From contig JAWCQE010000001.1 in NCBI GenBank assembly GCA_038869895.1, forward strand, positions 121,879 through 185,878: a stretch of 64,000 nucleotides of DNA. The letters run 5' to 3'. The translations under genes were made by a program, and so were the position numbers. The DNA is from Candidatus Pacearchaeota archaeon (lineage in GTDB: Archaea > Nanobdellota > Nanobdellia > Pacearchaeales > GW2011-AR1). Below, piece after piece: positions 7,091 to 41,117 of this stretch. The notes below the pieces were generated by a model. The model was not told the DNA's origin. It was given only the letters and a program-made list of their open reading frames with translations, and did not search any database. Numbering within the stretch: the stretch's first letter is position 1; the number at the start of each line of letters is the position of its first letter.

Positions 7091-8221
7091 TTACTTTAGT
7101 CCAAGATTAGCGAGAAGTTCTTCTTTTGAAAATTTTTCTAAATTTTTGTAATCTTGCCCTGTCCCTAGGAATAAGATTGGTTTTCCAGTTATATACCCTA
7201 TTGAGATTGCAGTTCCCCCTTTTTCATCTATGTCTGCTTTGGTTAAAATAGAACCATTAATTTCAAATAATTCATTGAATGATTTTGCCTGTTCAACAGC
7301 ATCATTACCTGTTATTGACTCAGCTATAAAAAGTTTTATATCAGGTTTGCAGACTCTTATTATCTTCTCCATCTCTTTCATTAGATTACTCTTAGTGTGC
7401 ATTCTTCCTGCAGTATCTATCATAACCACTTTTATCCCGTGTGATTTTGCATAAGAAATTGCGTCAAATGCAACTGCTGCTGGATCAGAACCATACTCAT
7501 GACTTATAACTTTAATCCCGAGGTTGTCACCATGCTTTTTTAGTTGTTCTATTGATGCTGCTCTGAAAGTATCTGAAGCTGCAAACACACACGAGATTTT
7601 GTGTTCATTGAGATAATATGCAAGTTTTGAAATAGTTGTTGTTTTGCCACTTCCGTTTATCCCAAAAAATAAAATAACAAAAGGGCCTTCTTTTTTCTCT
7701 CTTATTTTTTCAATAATATCAAATGGTTCTACAAGAATTCTTTTTATAGATTCTTTCAAAGAATTTTTGATTTCACTTTCAATTTCAGATTTTTTAATTT
7801 CAATATTCACAATATCCTTTTCCATATCTTCTTTTATTTTATCAACAACATTTAATGCTACATTATTCTCCAATAAAAGTGATTCCAATTCTTCAAAGAA
7901 TTCATCAAATATTTCCTTTGTTAAGCGCGATGTTGTAAATCTTCTTTTAATTCTTTCAAAAAATCCTTGTTCTTTTTCTAATTCAGGCTCTCCGATTTTT
8001 TCTTCAACTTGTTCTATTGAGTGTTCAAGTTTAATTGCGTTATCTTCTTTTAGTTTCTCTAAATCCTTTTTTTGTTTTTCAACACCTTCATATTTTTTTT
8101 CAGGTTCCTTTTCAATTTTTTCTTTTTTCTTGTCTTTTTCGTACTCTTCAGATTTTTCATCTTCTTTTTTTCCAAAGAATTTTGAAAGCTTTTCCTTTAA
8201 TGATTTGAACATTTTCTTCAA
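7091..8221 (-). CDS. ftsY: Signal recognition particle receptor FtsY
   Basis: SRP-GTPase NG domain motifs are present: GINGSGKTTTISKLA, DTAGR, TKAD. The N-terminus is an acidic K/E-rich region. Confidence 0.9.
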   Translation of the reverse strand: MKKMFKSLKEKLSKFFGKKEDEKSEEYEKDKKKEKIEKEPEKKYEGVEKQKKDLEKLKEDNAIKLEHSIEQVEEKIGEPELEKEQGFFERIKRRFTTSRLTKEIFDEFFEELESLLLENNVALNVVDKIKEDMEKDIVNIEIKKSEIESEIKNSLKESIKRILVEPFDIIEKIREKKEGPFVILFFGINGSGKTTTISKLAYYLNEHKISCVFAASDTFRAASIEQLKKHGDNLGIKVISHEYGSDPAAVAFDAISYAKSHGIKVVMIDTAGRMHTKSNLMKEMEKIIRVCKPDIKLFIAESITGNDAVEQAKSFNELFEINGSILTKADIDEKGGTAISIGYITGKPILFLGTGQDYKNLEKFSKEELLANLGLK

Positions 8222-8318
8222 TATTGTATCTCCGAAAGATATATATATATTTCCATTGAATTAATATAAACGTTAGTACGAGTATAACCGGAAATATAAT
8301 CAGACAGAGTGATAATCC

Positions 8319-8375
8319 ACAAGGAACTTATCAGATTTATACTAAGTCTGAGGTTTATACTAAGTCTGAGGTAGA
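8319..8375. repeat. Tandem 18-bp direct repeat (TTTATACTAAGTCTGAGG x2 plus a partial copy)
   Basis: Read directly from the sequence. It encodes YTKSEV YTKSEV in the frame that runs into ORF 8467..8757. Confidence 0.8.
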
Positions 8376-8466
8376 TACGATTGTTCGGAACACTAAAAAT
8401 AATCTGTCTGCTTTCAACGATAGAATAGATCAAAAGATAAATTCATTAGATTATTATATCAGAGAA

Positions 8467-8757
8467 ATGGATTCCAAAATATATTCATGTGGTGCAAATT
8501 CGCCACAAGACTTTAATTTCAGAAGTGGAGAGAGTGTTTTTACCTCAGATGGAAAAGAAATCTCTGTTATTACTAAATATAATAATGGGACCGTGGTTTT
8601 TAAAGTTTCGGCACAGGATATTAATGAGACAATAGTTTCCATGGAAAAAAAGGGAACTTCTGCTTTAATCGACGGTAGTAAAATACAGCTTCATTCAGTC
8701 CAAACAGTAACCTCTCCTTATCGAATTTCTTATTACGATAAGTCTTGTAACATATAA
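8467..8757 (+). CDS. Hypothetical protein
   Basis: ORF only. The frame is open upstream back to ~8260 but has no ATG there, so the start is uncertain. Confidence 0.3.
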   Translation: MDSKIYSCGANSPQDFNFRSGESVFTSDGKEISVITKYNNGTVVFKVSAQDINETIVSMEKKGTSALIDGSKIQLHSVQTVTSPYRISYYDKSCNI

Positions 8758-28460: not shown

Positions 28461-31115
28461 ATGAAAATTAATTTTAGAAAAGTCGGTTCAGTTATTGCGA
28501 GTGCAGCTATGCTTGGAAGCACAATGGGAATTGCTGTTGCAGCCTCTTATCCTGGTGCGTTTACTGCAGGAGGGGCTGGAGGAGTAGCAATAGTTACAGG
28601 AAGTATTGCAGCTTCAAGTGATTTTGTTGCAGCAACAGAGATAGGTTCAAATTTAAACAGTGCGATTGCTGCAGGTATAATTACTACTGGTGGAAGTGTT
28701 ACAACTAGTGGAGAAACAAAAGCACTTTTTACAGGTTCCTCAAAAATATATATGAATGATAGTATAAGCATAAATAAAGCTACTTTAACGAAAACTGATT
28801 TGCCAACTATTCTTGCAGATGGTGAATTTAATGGAAATGTTGATTCTGAATATACACAAAGAATTATTCTTGGTTCTTATCCAAGAGTTATTTTTGGAAA
28901 AATGCCAACAACTGAGAATGATCCTTTAACAGGAATCAACCTTGGCACAACAGTTACAACACAATATTTATATAATATGACAGTTACATTTGACGAAGCA
29001 GTTAACTTTACCCACTCTGATTCAAAAACAAAAGGGACTGAAATTACTTTATTTGGACAGAAATTTACAGTGGCTGGAGCTACAGATTCTAGTAAATTGG
29101 TATTATTGAAGTCAGCTCAAAAAATTACTTTGGGTCTTGGAGGAAACAATCCTAATCCAGTTCAATCTGTAACAGTTAATGATAGGACGTATACAGTAGA
29201 ACTTACAAATGTTCAAGATGATGAGGCCATAATTAAAGTAACTGATAGTAATGGACAAAGTTCAACAGCAAGAATTAGTGAAGGGGCTTCAAGAAAAGTT
29301 CAAGGATTAGAAGTTGCAGTTAACATAGCTACAGAATCAACTGCATTGAGTAGTGCATGGGCAGATATTATTGTTGGAACCTCAAAAGTTACTCTTCAAG
29401 ATGGAGAGCCTGTGAAAGTAGGTTCTGAGGATAAGATAATTGATGGTACTCAAGTTGATTTTGTTGATACCACATATACTGGGAATATAACTAGACTTGT
29501 TGTCCAAGTTGCAGCACCTGAAAGTGATAAAGATGCGATAACTCCTGCAATGTCATTTGTTGACCCTGTTTTTGGAGGTTTCAAAGTTGATTTTCCTGGA
29601 TTAAATATTGCAAATGAAGATGAAACTGCCAGAGAAATGATTGAAGTCAAGAATTCAGGAAGTGACAAAATGACTGTAAAATTTACAGACTATAATAAAG
29701 GTGAGATAACCTTTAATTGGGTCTATAACAGATCTAATTCACAGGGAGGAATTATGAGATTAGCAGATTCAAACAACAGAAGGATAATTGTTGCTGAAAT
29801 GTCTCCTATAAATAAATCAGAATATGTTATGGTTGGAAATGAAGATGAAGGAGGATTGTACCAAGTTGTAACAATCACAAATTCTTCGGGATTTTCAGAT
29901 GATTCAGTTGAATTAAGAGATGTTATTACAGGAAAAACTGAAAAAGCTTCTATTACTGCTGAAGGTTCTGGAACTATTGTCCTTAATGGAAAGACATATG
30001 AGGTAAGTTATTTTGCACCAAACACTTTAACTGACACAGCAAGAACCATAAGATTAAATTATCCTGACAGTTCAGGCAATAGTGTAATCTTATATCCTAC
30101 AATTGAAACGTCAAAAGGAGCAAAAATTGCTTTCTATGAACCATTAACTATAGATCTGATGACTCAACATGCTGGAGGCAATTTATCTGGACATAATATA
30201 AAATTTCCAGATGGAGATGGTTATACTGACGCCGCAGTTGTTATTGTAAATACAACTACTGGAATGGTGACTATAGATGGGAACAATCTTAATACAGGTG
30301 CTTCAGATGGAGCAAGTTCTACAACTAAAACTGTCGGAAGATTAACTTACAATTTCACAAGTACAGGTGTTGGTAACAATACGAAGGTCTATCTTCAAGC
30401 AATTCCAGGAGTAAATATTGTAAGGCCTGCAATAATCCTTTTTGAAGAAAAAGATGACCAAAATAATTACGAGGCTGTAGTTATTACATTAGATTCAGGT
30501 TATGACGGAGATAGTGCAGGAATCGGAGTCCAAAATGTTATAAGAACATGGGGGCTTGATGGTTCTAATGGAGATTCAGATGCATGGAATGATGTAAGAC
30601 TTGAAAGCAATGATGACTTGTATCAAGACATGGATAGATGGGGAACAATAATCACTGCTGATAAATCTGATAGTGATCAAACAAGGGCTGTAATAAGCTA
30701 CCCAGATGAACAAGTATATGCACAAGTCTATGTATCTTCATCAAATGCAGTCGTGTCTTCAGGAAATGGAGGAGCAGGAACCGTAATGGTTGTGAGAGAT
30801 AATGAAGTTGACAACATTGCAAACAAGAATCTGATTGTTGTTGGGGGTAGCTGTGTAAATACATTAGCTGCTGAATTGCTTGGAAGTTCAAATCCTTTAT
30901 GTGGAAGGGATTTCACTGCAAGAACAAATGTCGGTGTTGGAGAATACCTAATTGAAACTTTCTCACGAACTGACGGAAAAATTGCTACCTTAGTCGCAGG
31001 ATATGAAGCTGATGATACAAGGGCTGCAGCAAGGTCTTTGGTAACAAATAATCCAGAGATTGCTTCTGGTGTCAAGTATAAAGGTTCGACTTCAGGCTCA
31101 TTCACAAGAGCGTAA
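28461..31115 (+). CDS. Candidate S-layer / major cell-surface protein
   Basis: Signal peptide MKINFRKVGSVIASAAMLGSTMGIAVAA. 884 aa rich in T/S/G/N/V and poor in Cys until a C-terminal CVNTLAAELLGSSNPLC pair. GC content and codon usage are clearly above the contig background. A strong SD (AGGAGGT) and an AT-rich promoter lie upstream. Confidence 0.55.
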   Translation: MKINFRKVGSVIASAAMLGSTMGIAVAASYPGAFTAGGAGGVAIVTGSIAASSDFVAATEIGSNLNSAIAAGIITTGGSVTTSGETKALFTGSSKIYMNDSISINKATLTKTDLPTILADGEFNGNVDSEYTQRIILGSYPRVIFGKMPTTENDPLTGINLGTTVTTQYLYNMTVTFDEAVNFTHSDSKTKGTEITLFGQKFTVAGATDSSKLVLLKSAQKITLGLGGNNPNPVQSVTVNDRTYTVELTNVQDDEAIIKVTDSNGQSSTARISEGASRKVQGLEVAVNIATESTALSSAWADIIVGTSKVTLQDGEPVKVGSEDKIIDGTQVDFVDTTYTGNITRLVVQVAAPESDKDAITPAMSFVDPVFGGFKVDFPGLNIANEDETAREMIEVKNSGSDKMTVKFTDYNKGEITFNWVYNRSNSQGGIMRLADSNNRRIIVAEMSPINKSEYVMVGNEDEGGLYQVVTITNSSGFSDDSVELRDVITGKTEKASITAEGSGTIVLNGKTYEVSYFAPNTLTDTARTIRLNYPDSSGNSVILYPTIETSKGAKIAFYEPLTIDLMTQHAGGNLSGHNIKFPDGDGYTDAAVVIVNTTTGMVTIDGNNLNTGASDGASSTTKTVGRLTYNFTSTGVGNNTKVYLQAIPGVNIVRPAIILFEEKDDQNNYEAVVITLDSGYDGDSAGIGVQNVIRTWGLDGSNGDSDAWNDVRLESNDDLYQDMDRWGTIITADKSDSDQTRAVISYPDEQVYAQVYVSSSNAVVSSGNGGAGTVMVVRDNEVDNIANKNLIVVGGSCVNTLAAELLGSSNPLCGRDFTARTNVGVGEYLIETFSRTDGKIATLVAGYEADDTRAAARSLVTNNPEIASGVKYKGSTSGSFTRA

Positions 31116-31240: not shown

Positions 31241-31885
31241 TTGAATAATTTTATTAATAAACTTTTTAAACAAGATTTGATATTTTATAAAATGAGAAGA
31301 ATTGAGACAAAAGAAGATGCTGAAAAGAGGAAGAGAAGAAACCAGATAATTATTGCATTTGTTTTTATTAGTATTCTTACAAGTAGCACTATAGGATTTG
31401 TTTTTGTATTTAAAAATCCAGAATTTGATTCAAGTGAAAATAAGGAAAGTATAGATTATAATGGAATTAATTTTGTAAGAAACCAGCGAGGATATTGGCA
31501 ATTTAATTCTCACAATAGTACCTTTTTTACTTTATTTAATCCAAAAGAAACAGAAAATATTTCTTTTGAAGGAGAGGTAAATGTTAACGATTTTGTTAAT
31601 AAACCTCTTTATTATTCATCTGGAAATATGACTGCAGCACTTTCAGAACTAATGAGAAACATTGGAAGTTTCTCACTTAGGTATCAAGAAGTATGTGTTG
31701 AGAATTATGAATGTAAGAATGAAGGACTGCCTATAAAAGACTGTTCAAATGATATTATTATATTAAAATTATCAGATGAAATAAAAGCTTATAAACAGGA
31801 AAAATGTATTTTCCTTGAAGGAACTGAGGAAGAATTAATTTTGCTTGCAGATAAATTAATCTATAAATCTTTAGGTATTCAATAA
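31241..31885 (+). CDS. Hypothetical membrane-anchored protein
   Basis: One N-terminal TM. The extracytoplasmic domain carries a few Cys. Confidence 0.35.
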   Translation: MNNFINKLFKQDLIFYKMRRIETKEDAEKRKRRNQIIIAFVFISILTSSTIGFVFVFKNPEFDSSENKESIDYNGINFVRNQRGYWQFNSHNSTFFTLFNPKETENISFEGEVNVNDFVNKPLYYSSGNMTAALSELMRNIGSFSLRYQEVCVENYECKNEGLPIKDCSNDIIILKLSDEIKAYKQEKCIFLEGTEEELILLADKLIYKSLGIQ

Positions 31886-32562
31886 TGAAAGAACAAAAAG
31901 AGATTAAAAAGGAATCTTTAGAAAATAGAACAAAGGAAGAAGATAAAGACTCTTATCAGGAAGTAGGAGTTAAATGGCTCTTTATAATCCTTGCGTTTTT
32001 AGTTACTTCATTGATTATTGTTGGATGGATTTTATCAGAATCAAAGAAATCTGATTATATTGGACTGACTTTTAAAAAAGAGAATTTTGGTGAAATTCCA
32101 ATTTATACAACTTCTCTTACAGGATATGGTGTTAATGGAAAACCAATTGATTTTAAATTAATATTGAGAAATAATCCTAAAGAATCAAAAATACCAGTAA
32201 TTGGAGAAGTTGATTTTGTAATTGGTAAACCCATATATCTTTCTCTTAACATGGAAGGAGAATTATACAAATGTGGTTCTACTCCTTTAGTTGCCTTTGG
32301 CCAGTTTATGGATGCAATGGGTTTTAATATACAAACTGGAATAAGCACAGAAGATAAGGCAAATGAATTTCAAAGAGAATATATAACATGCCTTAATACT
32401 CCAGATGCTACGGTTTTATATCTTACTGAAGGCAATGAAAGTAAAATAGAAAGAGTTGACGATAAGTGCTATGTTTTAAGTGTAAATAATTGCGAACTTA
32501 CAGAAGTTCTTGAGAGGTTTGAGATAGCAACACTTTCAACATTAACAGGAAAATCGCTTTAA
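31885..32562 (+). CDS. Hypothetical membrane-anchored protein
   Basis: ATGA start/stop overlap with the previous gene. Similar architecture: N-terminal TM, Cys-containing ectodomain. Confidence 0.35.
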   Translation: MKEQKEIKKESLENRTKEEDKDSYQEVGVKWLFIILAFLVTSLIIVGWILSESKKSDYIGLTFKKENFGEIPIYTTSLTGYGVNGKPIDFKLILRNNPKESKIPVIGEVDFVIGKPIYLSLNMEGELYKCGSTPLVAFGQFMDAMGFNIQTGISTEDKANEFQREYITCLNTPDATVLYLTEGNESKIERVDDKCYVLSVNNCELTEVLERFEIATLSTLTGKSL

Positions 32563-32679: not shown

Positions 32680-33219
32680 TCATTTATTTTTTATATATTT
32701 CATAAAATAATTTACATCAGAATAAATAGGAATTTCCTTTATTTCAAAAATATAAATTGCTGAAAACCATATTATGACAACAAAAATCGTGCTTAATCCA
32801 TACCAAAAAAATTTATGTGTTATATCAAAGAATTGATAATTCGATAAAAAGAGGGATGAAAGGACAATAATTCTTATAATGTTAAATCCAAGAAAAACTG
32901 CGAATAGATAAATAAGTGAGTAAAGTCTTTTTTTATTTTCCATAGGTGTTGAGAGGTTTAGAATTAAAATAAGATAATATGCAGAGCCCGCGATACATGA
33001 TTCTATTAAGTTAATTGTTACGTTGTCTACAATTATACTTATTCCAGAAATATTTGTTGAGTAAAATAATTTTAATACATAAAAAACTGGATAAATTGTA
33101 AGAGGAGTTAACACTTTGTAGATTATCCAAAGATTTCCAATCCCAATAACAGCAAGAAAAATATATCTAAAGAGAATATTATAATAATTATAATTATTTG
33201 GCACCTTTCTTTTTTTCAT
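32680..33219 (-). CDS. Exosortase/archaeosortase-family transmembrane protein
   Basis: Polytopic membrane protein. It has a Cys motif (IESCIAGS, compare the exosortase EACSG block) and a downstream Asn/Arg motif (GFNIIRII). It is adjacent to a protein with a C-terminal sorting-type anchor. Confidence 0.55.
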   Translation of the reverse strand: MKKRKVPNNYNYYNILFRYIFLAVIGIGNLWIIYKVLTPLTIYPVFYVLKLFYSTNISGISIIVDNVTINLIESCIAGSAYYLILILNLSTPMENKKRLYSLIYLFAVFLGFNIIRIIVLSSLFLSNYQFFDITHKFFWYGLSTIFVVIIWFSAIYIFEIKEIPIYSDVNYFMKYIKNK

Positions 33220-33259
33220 TTAATACTATATTAAGATTAACTAGTTTAAAAACCTTATA

Positions 33260-34897
33260 TTATCTTTTTGCTATCCTTATGGCAACGATAATTATTAATA
33301 TTATTAATACAACATTAATAATAGCTATTAGCCAGATAATCCAATTTTCCCTTATATTGTTGGCAATTGAACTTCCTGTGAGTCCTTTTATTCCACTCCA
33401 ACCAACTTTTGGCTGAATGTTTGGAACACTTATTTTTTTTTCAGTTACTCTTCCATTGTGAGATACTTGGAGTGTAAAATCGTTATTTCCTGAGACGTCG
33501 CTATTTGGAGTTAAGGAAATTACAACCTCTCTTGAACTTCCTGCATCCAATGTTATTGTTCTTGGCTCAATTGAATTTAATGATGCCCATGTATCGTAAT
33601 TTAGGGCTGAAATTTGATATAATGTCTGTTCAGTTCCTGTGTTTGTTATTGTTGTTTTTATTATAAGATTTTGTCCTGCTACAGCACCAGACTCAAGTCT
33701 TGCTGAAATCCCCACAGAACTCTGTGAAGTTGTTGTAGTGGATCCCTGGCAATTTCCTTTGATTGTGAGAGGAATTGTAAATATTGATTCTTTTTCATCA
33801 GCATCTTCAAAATAATTTCCGTCTTCGTCATAAACCTCAAATCTCAAATTATATGTGCCTTCCCTAATATTTTTTGGAATTTCAAGAAGGAATGAAGTTC
33901 TTTTATCATCTAATGAATCTATATCCCCAAGTTCAATTATTTTCTGAAATCCAAATTCATTTACACTAACTTTTAATTCTACATCATCTTGGTTATCACT
34001 TCCAATATTCCAAAATGTTGCAGCAGTTACATCTACACTTGAACCACATTGCAAAGTTTCTGGCAGACTTAATTTATTGAAGTCCAAAATTATGAAATCT
34101 TCATCTATAAGTTCTGCTTCTTTTGTTTCATAAGCACATTGGACGTTTTCTCCAACATCATCACTAAATGCTTTTACAATGAGCATTAAGTTATCTCCTA
34201 AATCATCTTCACTGAAATCGTCAGGGTCTAGTTTAATTTTGATTGTTAGAATTTTGTTTTTTCCGTCGCTTAAATCAAATTCTTCTTCATCATTTTCATC
34301 AATTATTTTCCCTGTATTTTTATTAATAAGCATCCATTCAACAATTATGTCCCTTATTTTTTCATCATCTCTATTATCAACTTTAACTTCAAGTTCAATT
34401 TCATCTAATAAATACCATTCATCATCTTTTCCGTGTCCATTGTTATTTATGTGAAGTCTTACTCTTAAATCCCCCACATTGCCAACACTACAGAAAGTAT
34501 TTGTAAATGATACTGAAACATTTATTTTTTTTGTATTATTTGGACTTGCAACTTCCACAGCTTCAATTTCAATATTTTTTGTCTGTTGGATAAATGAAAA
34601 TCCATCCTCAATATTTAATACTGAAATTTTAAATCTTGCTGTTTTGACGTCTGTTATTGATGTTTCATTTATTATGGAAAGAGTAGCTTTTTTATCATTA
34701 TTATCTGTTATTTGCACTGATGAAGGGAAATTAAAATTTACAGACACATTATTTGTCACTGAAATTGTAAAAGTAGTAGTTGATGATTTGCTTACTATAG
34801 GTGATGGAGTTGTAGAACTTAAAACAGGTTCTACTGCGGATACAAATGAAATTATAAAAATGCTTGCCAAAAAAATTGATAGTACTTTTGATTTCAT
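33260..34897 (-). CDS. Secreted Ig-like repeat surface protein with C-terminal TM anchor + basic tail (putative archaeosortase substrate)
   Basis: Signal peptide MKSKVLSIFLASIFIISFVSA. The protein is acidic and repeat-rich. The C-terminus ...NWIIWLIAIINVVLIILIIIVAIRIAKR is a motif/TM/basic tripartite signal. Confidence 0.55.
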   Translation of the reverse strand: MKSKVLSIFLASIFIISFVSAVEPVLSSTTPSPIVSKSSTTTFTISVTNNVSVNFNFPSSVQITDNNDKKATLSIINETSITDVKTARFKISVLNIEDGFSFIQQTKNIEIEAVEVASPNNTKKINVSVSFTNTFCSVGNVGDLRVRLHINNNGHGKDDEWYLLDEIELEVKVDNRDDEKIRDIIVEWMLINKNTGKIIDENDEEEFDLSDGKNKILTIKIKLDPDDFSEDDLGDNLMLIVKAFSDDVGENVQCAYETKEAELIDEDFIILDFNKLSLPETLQCGSSVDVTAATFWNIGSDNQDDVELKVSVNEFGFQKIIELGDIDSLDDKRTSFLLEIPKNIREGTYNLRFEVYDEDGNYFEDADEKESIFTIPLTIKGNCQGSTTTTSQSSVGISARLESGAVAGQNLIIKTTITNTGTEQTLYQISALNYDTWASLNSIEPRTITLDAGSSREVVISLTPNSDVSGNNDFTLQVSHNGRVTEKKISVPNIQPKVGWSGIKGLTGSSIANNIRENWIIWLIAIINVVLIILIIIVAIRIAKR

Positions 34898-35137: not shown

Positions 35138-35506
35138 GTGAAATCAAAAGAGAATTTATTTGGTGCTTATGTTCTCCTTTCGGGAGTTATTATAGCGCTT
35201 GTTTTAGGTTTTTTTCAGGCAAGTATTCTTTCAGGATATAAGCCATGGATATATTTGCTTCTTGCTATTTTAGGAATTATTGTTGGAGCTGCGAGCGTTC
35301 GTGCGGATTCAAGAGAAGCAACAACTTTTCTATTAGCTTCGATTTCAATAGTTATTGTAAGTTCAATAGGACAGGTTAATTTAATCTTAGTTGGGAATAT
35401 TGGTGTAAAAATAGTTGTTATCCTTAATGCATTATTAACAATGTTTATTCCTGCAACTATTGTTGTTGCATTAAAAACAGTTTTTTCTGTAGCAAGTGTA
35501 AAATGA
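35138..35506 (+). CDS. Hypothetical small membrane protein (4 TM)
   Basis: ORF with four hydrophobic helices. Confidence 0.35.
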   Translation: MKSKENLFGAYVLLSGVIIALVLGFFQASILSGYKPWIYLLLAILGIIVGAASVRADSREATTFLLASISIVIVSSIGQVNLILVGNIGVKIVVILNALLTMFIPATIVVALKTVFSVASVK

Positions 35507-35641
35507 CAAAGATACTAAGGTTTCTTTGTTGAATCTTTCTATTTTTAACTATCATTTTTTATTTTAAAATATAAAATTTGATATTTATCTCATAATTTTA
35601 TATAATATCTCTTTTAATTTTAAGATAGAATTCTTTCTTAA

Positions 35642-36019
35642 TTAGTTATTTCGTGGAGAATCTTGGATAAATCCACTAGATGTATTAATTTCCGCGAATT
35701 GTGGGGTAGCAATTATTATATTTTCTCCAAATCCCGTAATGTTTCCTTCAAGAGCTTCTGTCGTTTTTTTTAACTTTGCAACAGCTCTTTTAAGTTCAAT
35801 TACATCTTTTTTCCTTAATGCTTGAATATCTATAACAGCGATTGTATATCCTTCTCTTAGAGAATTTAATACTTCATTAATGTCTTCAAATTTTCTAAGA
35901 ACAAAAGGCCTTACACTTACTTTAGATCTTTTCTCTTCATTTCCAATGTCAATTTCAACATAATCTTCATCTGATGAACTATCTCCTCCAACCAATTTTT
36001 TTAATTTATTTAAGACCAT
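35642..36019 (-). CDS. sepF: Cell division protein SepF homolog
   Basis: The C-terminal domain pattern (RPFVLRKFEDINEVLNSLREGYTIAVIDIQAL...GENIIIATPQFAEI) matches SepF/DUF552. FtsZ is in the same window. Confidence 0.65.
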   Translation of the reverse strand: MVLNKLKKLVGGDSSSDEDYVEIDIGNEEKRSKVSVRPFVLRKFEDINEVLNSLREGYTIAVIDIQALRKKDVIELKRAVAKLKKTTEALEGNITGFGENIIIATPQFAEINTSSGFIQDSPRNN

Positions 36020-36063
36020 AGAAAATTTAATTTGAATGAGTTTATAAAGATTTCTGTATTATA

Positions 36064-36393
36064 TCATTTAAGTTTGTTCATAATTTCTGCTCTTAGTCTT
36101 TCTATCTCTTCCTTCATTTCAAGTTCTTGTTTCTCAACAGATTTAACCTTTAAATCAAGGATTTTCTTTTTTTCACCAAGTTCTTTATTTAATGACGCCT
36201 TATCTGATTTTACCATTATCTGTCCAATAACTCTAAATACATCAGATTTTGTTTTTCCTATTTCGTTTATGGCTGTAAGAATTTCATTTATTTCTATTTG
36301 AAATGTCTGCTTCTGAAGAATAATATTCTGAAAATTTTGTTCCAATATTTGTAGGCTTTGTATTTTTTTTCCAGTTTCTTGATCAACTTCCAT
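36064..36393 (-). CDS. pfdB: Prefoldin subunit beta
   Basis: ~110-aa coiled-coil protein with the central beta-hairpin region (SDVFRVIGQIMVKSDK). Typical prefoldin beta length. Confidence 0.65.
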   Translation of the reverse strand: MEVDQETGKKIQSLQILEQNFQNIILQKQTFQIEINEILTAINEIGKTKSDVFRVIGQIMVKSDKASLNKELGEKKKILDLKVKSVEKQELEMKEEIERLRAEIMNKLK

Positions 36394-36421
36394 TTTATTG
36401 ATATAATCTTTTATATTTTAT

Positions 36422-36559
36422 TTAAATCGCTTTTATTTTTGTAATTGATAATCTTGGTTTATAAAAAATTCTTGAATTACAAAATGGACAAGTGAATCTT
36501 TTGTCAAGTTTTTTATATGAAATTGATTTTCCACATTTGAAACATTTATATTCTACCAT
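36422..36559 (-). CDS. rpoP: DNA-directed RNA polymerase subunit P (RpoP/Rpo12)
   Basis: Hand-translated 45-aa ORF MVEYKCFKCGKSISYKKLDKRFTCPFCNSRIFYKPR... carrying a CxxC...CxxC zinc ribbon. It lies next to L37Ae, as in many archaea. Not in the ORF track. Confidence 0.7.
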   Translation of the reverse strand: MVEYKCFKCGKSISYKKLDKRFTCPFCNSRIFYKPRLSITKIKAI

Positions 36560-36591
36560 TTGTTTTATAGAACTTATTTAGTATTTAAATT

Positions 36592-36804
36592 TTATTCTAA
36601 ATAATAAGCTCCTCCGGCGAATGTTTTTCCGCATTTTTTACATTTCCATATCCCAAACGATTTTCTCTTTGCTGTTTTTTTACAGAATGGACAAATTTGT
36701 TTTTTCCTTTGTTTTGATTCAACCAAAATAAGTCTTTCTCTAACTCTTGTTCCATACCCTATTTTATATTTTCCAGATGCCTTTACTTTTTTTGTTCTAG
36801 ACAT
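36592..36804 (-). CDS. rpl37ae: 50S ribosomal protein L37Ae
   Basis: GKYKIGYGTRVRER...CPFCKK...GIWKCKKCGKTFAGGAY matches the L37Ae zinc-ribbon signature. Confidence 0.85.
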   Translation of the reverse strand: MSRTKKVKASGKYKIGYGTRVRERLILVESKQRKKQICPFCKKTAKRKSFGIWKCKKCGKTFAGGAYYLE

Positions 36805-37179: not shown

Positions 37180-40010
<2,831 letters not shown>

Positions 40011-41117
40011 ACTAAAACACATTTAGTGGGAAATTACTGTGCTCGTCTCATTGCTAAATATTATCCTAGTTTTGAAACATAGGTGTTCTTTTGCTCCACT
40101 CCCCCCAATTTACATGAAAAAGAGGTTCATATAATTTTTACGATGATAAATCAGAATTAATTTTCCATAAACAAAGATTTCTCTATGTTTATAGCATTAA
40201 ATATTAATTGACTGATTACCATCTAATAATCTTGAGATAAATCAAGTTTTTAAATGTTTTTGTTAATTTTGGTTTTGTAAAATAAGATATAAATAGTTTA
40301 ATTTTTTAAATAAAATTTAGTTTAAAGAAAATTTAATCTATCTGCTTTTGGGCAATTCATTTTAACTTAAACAAAATTTATAAGTCAGCTCCTACCTTTT
40401 TTCTATATACTCTTACTAAAATATGAGATTTTTTATCTGGTTTGTAAAATAATTTGGTTCTTGGTTTTACATTCTGTGCAAGTCATCTTTTCATACTACC
40501 TTTTGTTTTCTTTCATATCCAATTTAATCAAAATGCTTTTTACAAAATTACTTAATTTACAAAGCCGTTATTTTATATCGAAAATTTTTTTAACACTAAA
40601 TAATAGATTTATCAAAGATTTAATTACGAATAAGATAAATAATATTTACTTTTCTTTAATAAATAAACTTAACTATTTTTATATTCTATAATTCATTTGG
40701 TATTTAATAAAACCTTAAAGTGAATTTTGAATATGAAAAATTTAATCATTGTTATTTTTCATTGATAAATTAAATTATTGCCTTTTTAGAAAAATAAGAG
40801 AACTTTAAAATAAAATAATCAATATATTTATGTGCATTTTGTAGATATTTTTAGTAAGAAATTTAGAAAATATATATTAGAAATTTAAATGACTAAAAGT
40901 TATTTTTACTATAATAAACAAAATTACATAGATTATTTATTATAAATATAAATATTTTTTTAAAAAAATAAAATCTGAAATTGCAAGACAAATTGGACTA
41001 TATAAAAAAATGCGAAGTAAATTTACGTTCTGGATTTTTTTTAGAAATTCTTTATTTTAATTTAATGATTTTAGTAATTTTAACTATTTCTATTTTAATT
41101 ATATTTCTTCCATTCTA

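Follow-up and report, generated by a model that had tools for sequence, protein, structure and literature searches.

The 64-kb stretch of archaeal DNA analyzed here (referred to throughout, at its full length, as the window) contains two genes that lie on the same strand, 40 nucleotides apart, and encode a polytopic membrane protein of 179 amino acids and an acidic protein of 545 amino acids (Table 1). Very probably, the smaller protein is a pacearchaeosortase and the larger one a PACE-CTERM protein that serves as its dedicated substrate, and the source is a DPANN archaeon of the Pacearchaeota type, which GTDB places in the phylum Nanoarchaeota. The 179-amino-acid protein matches NCBIfam model NF033505 ('pacearchaeosortase') with 202 bits against a cut-off of 80 (E = 6.7e-60), and the alignment of residues 13–176 with profile positions 2–166 of 167 covers the full length of the model. 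The 545-amino-acid protein matches NF033506 ('PACE-CTERM-PROT, putative S-layer protein') with 377.5 bits against a cut-off of 110 (E = 1.3e-112); residues 56–545 align with profile positions 139–627 of 627 and thus reach the last position of the model. The system is already known. Both families are curated in NCBIfam, and the same names are attached to GenBank proteins that are 99% identical to the sortase (P0001, 'MAG: pacearchaeosortase [Candidatus Pacearchaeota archaeon]') and 100% identical to the substrate (P0121, 'MAG: putative S-layer protein [Candidatus Pacearchaeota archaeon]').

An initial annotation, made from the sequence alone, had described the smaller protein as an exosortase/archaeosortase-family enzyme shorter than ArtA and its neighbor as a substrate bearing the tripartite signal that such enzymes process. 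Both open reading frames (ORFs) and the blocks that it quoted (IESCIAGS, GFNIIRII, and the tail) are present as noted. Searches with hidden Markov models (HMMs) agree with the family assignment through the NF033505 match and through the signature TIGR04178, which is matched by every relative that was sampled. A length of 179 amino acids is shorter than ArtA and normal for the family, whose model has 167 positions; the neighbor, a member of NF033506, ends in a motif, a transmembrane (TM) helix, and the basic tail RIAKR.

The ORFs of the sortase and the substrate were taken from an ORF listing with translations. When a single genome from each species was scanned, 309 loci that encode sortase relatives were identified; 80 of these were fetched for comparison. 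Conservation within the sortase was assessed in an alignment of 25 diverse relatives that are 46–57% identical to the window protein, and conservation of the tail was assessed in 105 non-redundant C-termini drawn from database homologues and the related loci. Below, loci 'with room' are related loci that have enough flanking DNA to show the neighboring gene in question.

The GC content of the window is ~28–30%. The window is archaeal, as indicated by a complete archaeal 23S rRNA gene at positions 37181–40015 on the minus strand (2264 bits). No match to 16S or 5S rRNA was found anywhere in the 64 kb, which suggests that the source genome carries its rRNA genes at separate sites, a common arrangement in DPANN genomes. 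The metagenome-assembled genomes (MAGs) from which the related sortase loci derive are labeled Pacearchaeota, Woesearchaeota, and Nanoarchaeota, with a few evidently mis-binned 'bacterial' MAGs; together with the 23S rRNA gene, these sources fit the DPANN-like organism that had been proposed. The three loci designated L036, L051, and L073 carry the archaeal sortase-substrate cluster but were deposited as bacterial MAGs (Omnitrophota, Collierbacteria, and Patescibacteria); their bacterial labels are probably the result of a binning error.

Family and predicted active site of the sortase

All 25 sampled relatives of the window sortase match NF033505, and all 25 also match TIGR04178 at E <= 0.01 (best 1.2e-9). 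The same relatives cross-match models of other branches, namely XrtX (19 relatives), XrtH (15), ArtE (14), heimdallarchaeosortase (13), and XrtM (13), and five of them match the Pfam family PF09721 (Exosortase_EpsH; best 1.5e-5). The window protein itself weakly matches XrtH with 25 bits against a cut-off of 86. As judged by these profile matches, the assignment of the family to the exosortase/archaeosortase superfamily is solid. Membership in the ArtA family (TIGR04125) was considered and rejected: the window protein gave no match at E <= 1, a single relative of the 25 matched at E = 0.0082, and the tail of the substrate lacks PGF. On sequence grounds, pacearchaeosortases are a clade separate from ArtA.

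The sortase is basic (isoelectric point, pI, 9.5) and contains hydrophobic segments at residues ~14–40, 69–89, 99–127, and 137–165, which indicates a polytopic membrane protein. Its AlphaFold model (predicted local distance difference test, pLDDT, 86.6; predicted template modeling score, pTM, 0.77) comprises helices at residues 12–52, 77–90, 95–125, 131–157, and 164–178 together with a small β-sheet at residues 55–70. A search of PDB sequences with the sortase family profile returned 0 matches.

The two blocks that the initial annotation had compared to active-site motifs prove to be strictly conserved. Cys75, which lies in the LIESCIAGS block and is the sole cysteine of the protein, is invariant in 25 of 25 homologues, as are Asn113 and Arg116 of the N..R block. 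The same is true of His135, of a TPLTxYP block, and of a C-terminal P-x-Y-x-D. A histidine presumably also belongs to the superfamily signature, as indicated by a MEROPS-style table in PMC9263693. The activity of ArtA from Haloferax volcanii depends critically on Cys173, Arg214, and Arg253 (PMC9263693). By arithmetic on residue numbers, the spacing of 41 residues between Cys75 and Arg116 in the window sortase equals that between Cys173 and Arg214 in ArtA. The basic N-terminus of the sortase and a KKR loop at residues 95–97 are most likely cytoplasmic as predicted by the positive-inside rule, and this orientation would therefore place Cys75, Arg116, and His135 near the outer face of the membrane.

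The predicted PACE-CTERM substrate and its sorting tail

The 545-amino-acid protein is acidic (pI 4.49), and all 30 of its homologues that were examined match NF033506. Its AlphaFold model (pLDDT 84.2) shows four β-sandwich domains at residues ~25–131, 135–265, 268–380, and 393–495, followed by a disordered linker (residues 499–516) and a terminal helix (residues 511–544). Foldseek comparison of this model with the PDB returned only generic proteins with tandem Ig, macroglobulin, or ASH domains and no S-layer structure. Thus, the predicted fold neither backs nor contradicts the 'S-layer' label that the protein carries.

The tail of the protein reads ...NWIIWLIAIINVVLIILIIIVAIRIAKR. It contains a single C-terminal hydrophobic segment (residues 515–545) that ends in RIAKR. 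The alignment of 105 tails yields the signature G-[IL]-T-G, followed, after a spacer that differs in length among tails, by N-W-[YF]-[LI]-W-x-I-G-x-L-N-x-I-L-x-x-x-I-I-x-V-A-V-R-x-A-[RK]-[KR]. The most conserved columns correspond to L531 (102 of 104 sequences), I535 (100 of 104), W522 (99 of 104), N528 (94 of 104), and N518 (88 of 104); the T-G of the upstream motif is found in 66–73 of ~75 occupied positions. The ectodomains are only ~30% identical, and the tail is far more conserved. As read from the alignment, this pattern is not what a passive membrane anchor would show. The suspicion that the motif falls outside the PGF, PEF, and PIP classes was well placed, since PACE-CTERM is a separately curated class. 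Comparison with relatives also indicates that the tail seems to be unique in each genome region, yet it shares a strongly conserved motif with its counterparts in other genomes; it is not a lone tail devoid of a shared motif.

The tail is confined to one protein family. When the last 55 residues were compared with 1.84 billion representative proteins, 64 matches were obtained; 62 of the 63 non-self matches are full-length members of the same family or fragments of them, and the remaining one is spurious. Short tail-bearing proteins of 47–373 amino acids were considered as a second substrate family. They were rejected because all of them align with the C-terminal part of the family HMM and are thus fragments. 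Within the window, the tail HMM matches the 545-amino-acid protein and nothing else, and a heuristic for a C-terminal TM segment plus basic tail, applied to window ORFs of at least 150 amino acids, likewise retrieves this protein only. The window and each of the 80 related loci contain at most one tail carrier. From this distribution, it looks as though each sortase system has one dedicated substrate.

Conservation of the gene pair and a model for substrate processing

A homologue of the substrate is encoded within ~2 kb of the sortase gene in 75 of 80 related loci, and in 59 of the 61 for which 2.5 kb or more of upstream sequence is available. The substrate gene usually lies upstream of the sortase gene on the same strand. 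A precedent for the function of such a pair is ArtA, which cleaves a tripartite signal from its substrates; these become lipid-anchored (PMC6098224, PMC9263693). By analogy, the pacearchaeosortase most likely cleaves the C-terminal anchor of the PACE-CTERM protein and probably transfers the cleaved protein to a lipid.

These considerations suggest a model in which the 545-amino-acid protein would be exported by Sec and held transiently in the membrane by its C-terminal helix. The active site of the sortase (Cys75, Arg116, and His135), positioned at the outer membrane face, would recognize the conserved N-W-x-x-W...N...L face of this helix and possibly also the upstream G-[IL]-T-G. Attack by Cys75 would generate a thioacyl intermediate and release the C-terminal helix. 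The new C-terminus could then be transferred to the head group of a membrane lipid, as proposed for PGF-CTERM proteins and ArtA of Haloferax volcanii, and the end product would be a lipid-anchored surface-layer protein. We weakly favor the N-W-x-x-W boundary as the element that determines the register of cleavage, because G-I-T-G stands at a variable distance from the helix.

Several observations weigh against the assignment of the two proteins as a pacearchaeosortase and its dedicated substrate. The window sortase itself scores just under the cut-off of the TIGR04178 signature (20.8 bits against 23, E = 3.6e-4). Moreover, no Pfam model, PF09721 included, matched it significantly, and for this reason superfamily membership was shown through NCBIfam and the relatives. 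The third critical residue of ArtA is Arg253 rather than a histidine, and the window sortase has no arginine at the equivalent spacing. Foldseek comparison of the sortase model with solved structures returned only generic helix bundles and no related structure that could validate the model. In the literature library searched, no paper names 'pacearchaeosortase' or 'PACE-CTERM', and no biochemistry for any member was found. Two related loci, L005 and L033, encode a sortase with ample flanks but have no PACE-CTERM protein and no match to the tail HMM nearby. Finally, the entire ~10-kb neighborhood is syntenic in related genomes, including the housekeeping genes for L37ae, prefoldin-beta, and SepF; taken alone, adjacency therefore says less about functional coupling than it seems to. 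What leads us to pair the enzyme with this substrate is the combination of adjacency, a conserved tail that is restricted to one family, the conservation of the catalytic residues, and the example set by ArtA.

Neighboring genes and alternative interpretations

Two kilobases from the sortase gene, the window encodes an 884-amino-acid protein of the Methanococcus-type S-layer family whose sole hydrophobic segment is N-terminal. Among the 48 related loci with room, 46 encode it. It is possible that this protein, and not the PACE-CTERM protein, forms the lattice, in which case the name 'putative S-layer protein' of the latter would be questionable. A bona fide S-layer-family protein that has no anchor and is conserved so close by raises a serious, if minority, possibility: the 545-amino-acid protein might not be a lattice subunit at all. 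It would instead be a lipid- or TM-anchored stalk that tethers the 884-amino-acid S_layer_C-family canopy, in the manner of SlaB, or an adhesin for host contact in an episymbiont, with sortase processing retained in both cases. The match of its folds to generic Ig and macroglobulin domains rather than to an S-layer structure is consistent with such a role, as is the example of the Sulfolobales, which anchor just one of two S-layer subunits by a C-terminal TM segment (PMC6098224). A lattice function is favored instead by the family name 'putative S-layer protein' chosen by the NCBI curators and by the fact that the S-layer glycoprotein (SLG) of Haloferax is itself an ArtA substrate (PMC9263693).

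A gene for a PAP2-type phosphatase of ~205 amino acids lies beside the sortase gene, on the opposite strand, in 36 of 73 related loci; in many of the 36, it separates the sortase gene from that of the substrate. The encoded proteins share the motifs RxRP … SFPS … SRxxxGxHxxSD. The gene is absent from the window. The PAP2-type phosphatase may be linked to the lipid chemistry of anchoring, and its position offers a hint of such chemistry that argues against another interpretation, in which the tail is cleaved but no lipid is attached. The ectodomain would then be released or joined to something other than a lipid, such as a glycan or the 884-amino-acid S-layer protein, whose gene is a conserved neighbor and which has no anchor of its own. 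We consider this improbable. In its favor, ArtA is the sole member of the superfamily that has been studied experimentally, exosortases being unanalyzed according to a 2018 review (PMC6098224), and lipid anchoring of ArtA substrates in Haloferax requires PssA and PssD (PMC9263693). No genes for PssA or PssD were seen in a view of ±10 kb around the pair, a span that leaves room for them elsewhere in the genome. The closest characterized homologue is nonetheless associated with lipid anchoring.

It is very improbable that the two proteins are unrelated in function, with adjacency reflecting the gene order of small, slowly rearranging genomes (synteny is as strong for L37ae, prefoldin, and SepF as for the pair, and L005 and L033 have no substrate nearby), the C-terminal helix serving as a permanent anchor, and the sortase-like protein acting elsewhere: a plain anchor would not preserve W, N, L, and I residues at near-invariant positions, together with an upstream T-G, over ectodomains that are only ~30% identical, the tail is restricted to one protein family, no other protein with a C-terminal TM segment and basic tail occurs in the window, and the catalytic residues of the enzyme are strictly conserved.

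Downstream of the sortase gene and convergent with it are genes for two single-pass membrane proteins of 214 and 225 amino acids. The genes overlap by stop and start codons, and their products are weak paralogues (BLASTP E = 0.001) that matched no family in NCBIfam or Pfam scans. The paired proteins are conserved in 70 of 71 and 72 of 74 related loci with room, respectively. It is only possible that they form part of the sortase module.

Upstream of the substrate gene, the window encodes a four-helix membrane protein of 122 amino acids, conserved in 47 of 58 loci, followed by SepF, prefoldin-beta, and ribosomal protein L37ae; the four genes are syntenic in ~50 related loci. One report ties ArtA-dependent lipid anchoring in haloarchaea to midcell growth (PMC7157517), which makes the presence of SepF beside an archaeosortase system suggestive, but it may equally be plain conservation of gene order.

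Table 1. Positions of the sortase and substrate genes, their functional elements, and neighboring genes. Coordinates are those of the window, except that PAP2-type genes are numbered within the related locus named; those of the Cys75 codon and of the sorting domain were verified.
Feature	Coordinates	Strand	Basis or remark
Pacearchaeosortase gene, 179 amino acids; predicted minimal polytopic exosortase/archaeosortase-family cysteine transpeptidase or peptidase	32680-33219	-	NF033505 match
Cys75 codon, predicted catalytic nucleophile, in the ACIAGSAYY block at the outer end of second membrane helix	32995-32997	-	Invariant in 25/25
Asn113-x-x-Arg116 block (NIIR, within GFNIIRII); Arg116 is the predicted active-site arginine	32872-32883	-	Both residues invariant
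His135 codon (T-H-K), predicted third active-site residue, outer end of last membrane helix	32815-32817	-	Invariant in 25/25; helix from residue 131
PACE-CTERM protein gene, 545 amino acids, annotated 'putative S-layer protein'; predicted sole sortase substrate	33260-34897	-	NF033506 match
Signal peptide-like N-terminal segment MKSKVLSIFLASIFIISFVSAV	34832-34897	-	Hydrophobic residues 1-28; model helix 4-17 at low pLDDT
PACE-CTERM sorting domain, residues 503-545	33263-33391	-	Conserved columns in 105 tails
GLTG motif	33374-33385	-	Upstream part of sorting domain; variable spacer follows
NWIIW at membrane boundary	33332-33346	-	
TM helix, residues 519-540	33278-33343	-	
Basic tail RIAKR	33263-33277	-	
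Secreted S-layer-family protein, 884 amino acids, no membrane anchor, 2 kb from sortase	28461-31115	+	Pfam PF05124 S_layer_C, 33.1 bits, cut-off 23.9
Single-pass membrane protein, 214 amino acids, four ectodomain Cys	31241-31885	+	Convergent with sortase gene
Single-pass membrane protein, 225 amino acids, four ectodomain Cys	31885-32562	+	Convergent with sortase gene
Four-helix membrane protein, 122 amino acids, no family; then SepF (PF04472), prefoldin-beta, ribosomal protein L37ae	35138-36804		Upstream of substrate gene
PAP2-type gene, locus L031	749-1366		Example from related locus
PAP2-type gene, locus L009	7336-7965		Example from related locus
PAP2-type gene, locus L020	7314-7946		Example from related locus

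Comparison with known systems

The window pair resembles other NF033505/NF033506 pairs in that both proteins are full-length, high-scoring members from the same taxon, are encoded by adjacent genes, and share the same invariant residues and tail. It differs from these relatives in nothing of substance; the two genes are directly adjacent in the window, whereas a PAP2-like gene is inserted next to the sortase gene in roughly half of the related loci.

In common with the ArtA/PGF-CTERM system of Haloferax volcanii, the window system consists of a polytopic enzyme of the same superfamily, with conserved Cys and Arg residues 41 positions apart, and a substrate whose signal combines a motif, a TM helix, and a basic tail. 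In both systems, the substrate is an acidic, Ig-domain-rich surface or S-layer protein. The window enzyme, with 179 amino acids and about four membrane helices, is much shorter than ArtA, and its family is paired with the motif G-[IL]-T-G … N-W-x-x-W rather than PGF. The third conserved residue is His135, whereas the third critical residue of ArtA is Arg253 (PMC9263693). The pacearchaeosortase has one dedicated substrate family, in contrast to the 1 to 52 substrates per genome reported for ArtA (PMC6098224).

Weak but consistent cross-matches connect the family to XrtH (TIGR04177), XrtX (NF046081), ArtE (TIGR04124), and heimdallarchaeosortase (NF045528). The models of XrtH, XrtX, and pacearchaeosortase are similarly minimal, with 158–168 positions. 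Scores against these four families fall far below their cut-offs, and their sorting signals and taxa differ from those of the window system.

The gene for a protein with a C-terminal TM segment lies close to that for an S-layer-family protein lacking an anchor, an arrangement that recalls SlaA and SlaB of the Sulfolobales. This is an analogy only; a sequence relationship was neither sought nor found. The Sulfolobales differ from the window system in having no archaeosortase and in keeping the TM anchor (PMC6098224).

DPANN symbionts of this kind are generally unable to make their own lipids. It is tempting to speculate that the sortase and its substrate form the core of a more extensive, unrecognized module for envelope assembly in Pacearchaeota and Woesearchaeota. 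Such a module would comprise an anchorless canopy of the S_layer_C family, the two paralogous Cys-rich type-II membrane proteins, the sortase (with or without the PAP2 lipid-phosphate phosphatase), and the PACE-CTERM protein as a lipid-anchored stalk that tethers the canopy, with the acceptor drawn from host-derived lipids. We regard this scheme as unlikely. If it were true, the module would be the first two-component S-layer built by an archaeosortase. The wider conserved cluster of envelope genes around the pair is in itself the one mildly new observation.

S-layer data are lacking for DPANN archaea (PMC6098224, PMC5744192). The pacearchaeosortase represents a minimal archaeosortase (~170–180 amino acids) with a single dedicated substrate in a lineage whose envelope is unstudied. 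A pair of one enzyme and one substrate as compact as this would lend itself well to work on the biochemistry and structure of exosortases and archaeosortases, a superfamily for which the PDB searches by sequence and by fold turned up no solved structure. The value of the locus is that of a pointer and not of a discovery, since the NCBI pipeline already names both genes in the same organism.

One further observation concerns L033 (SCGC AAA011-D5), in which the sortase ORF, measured from stop to stop, is unusually long and extends over positions 7632–8543 of that locus.

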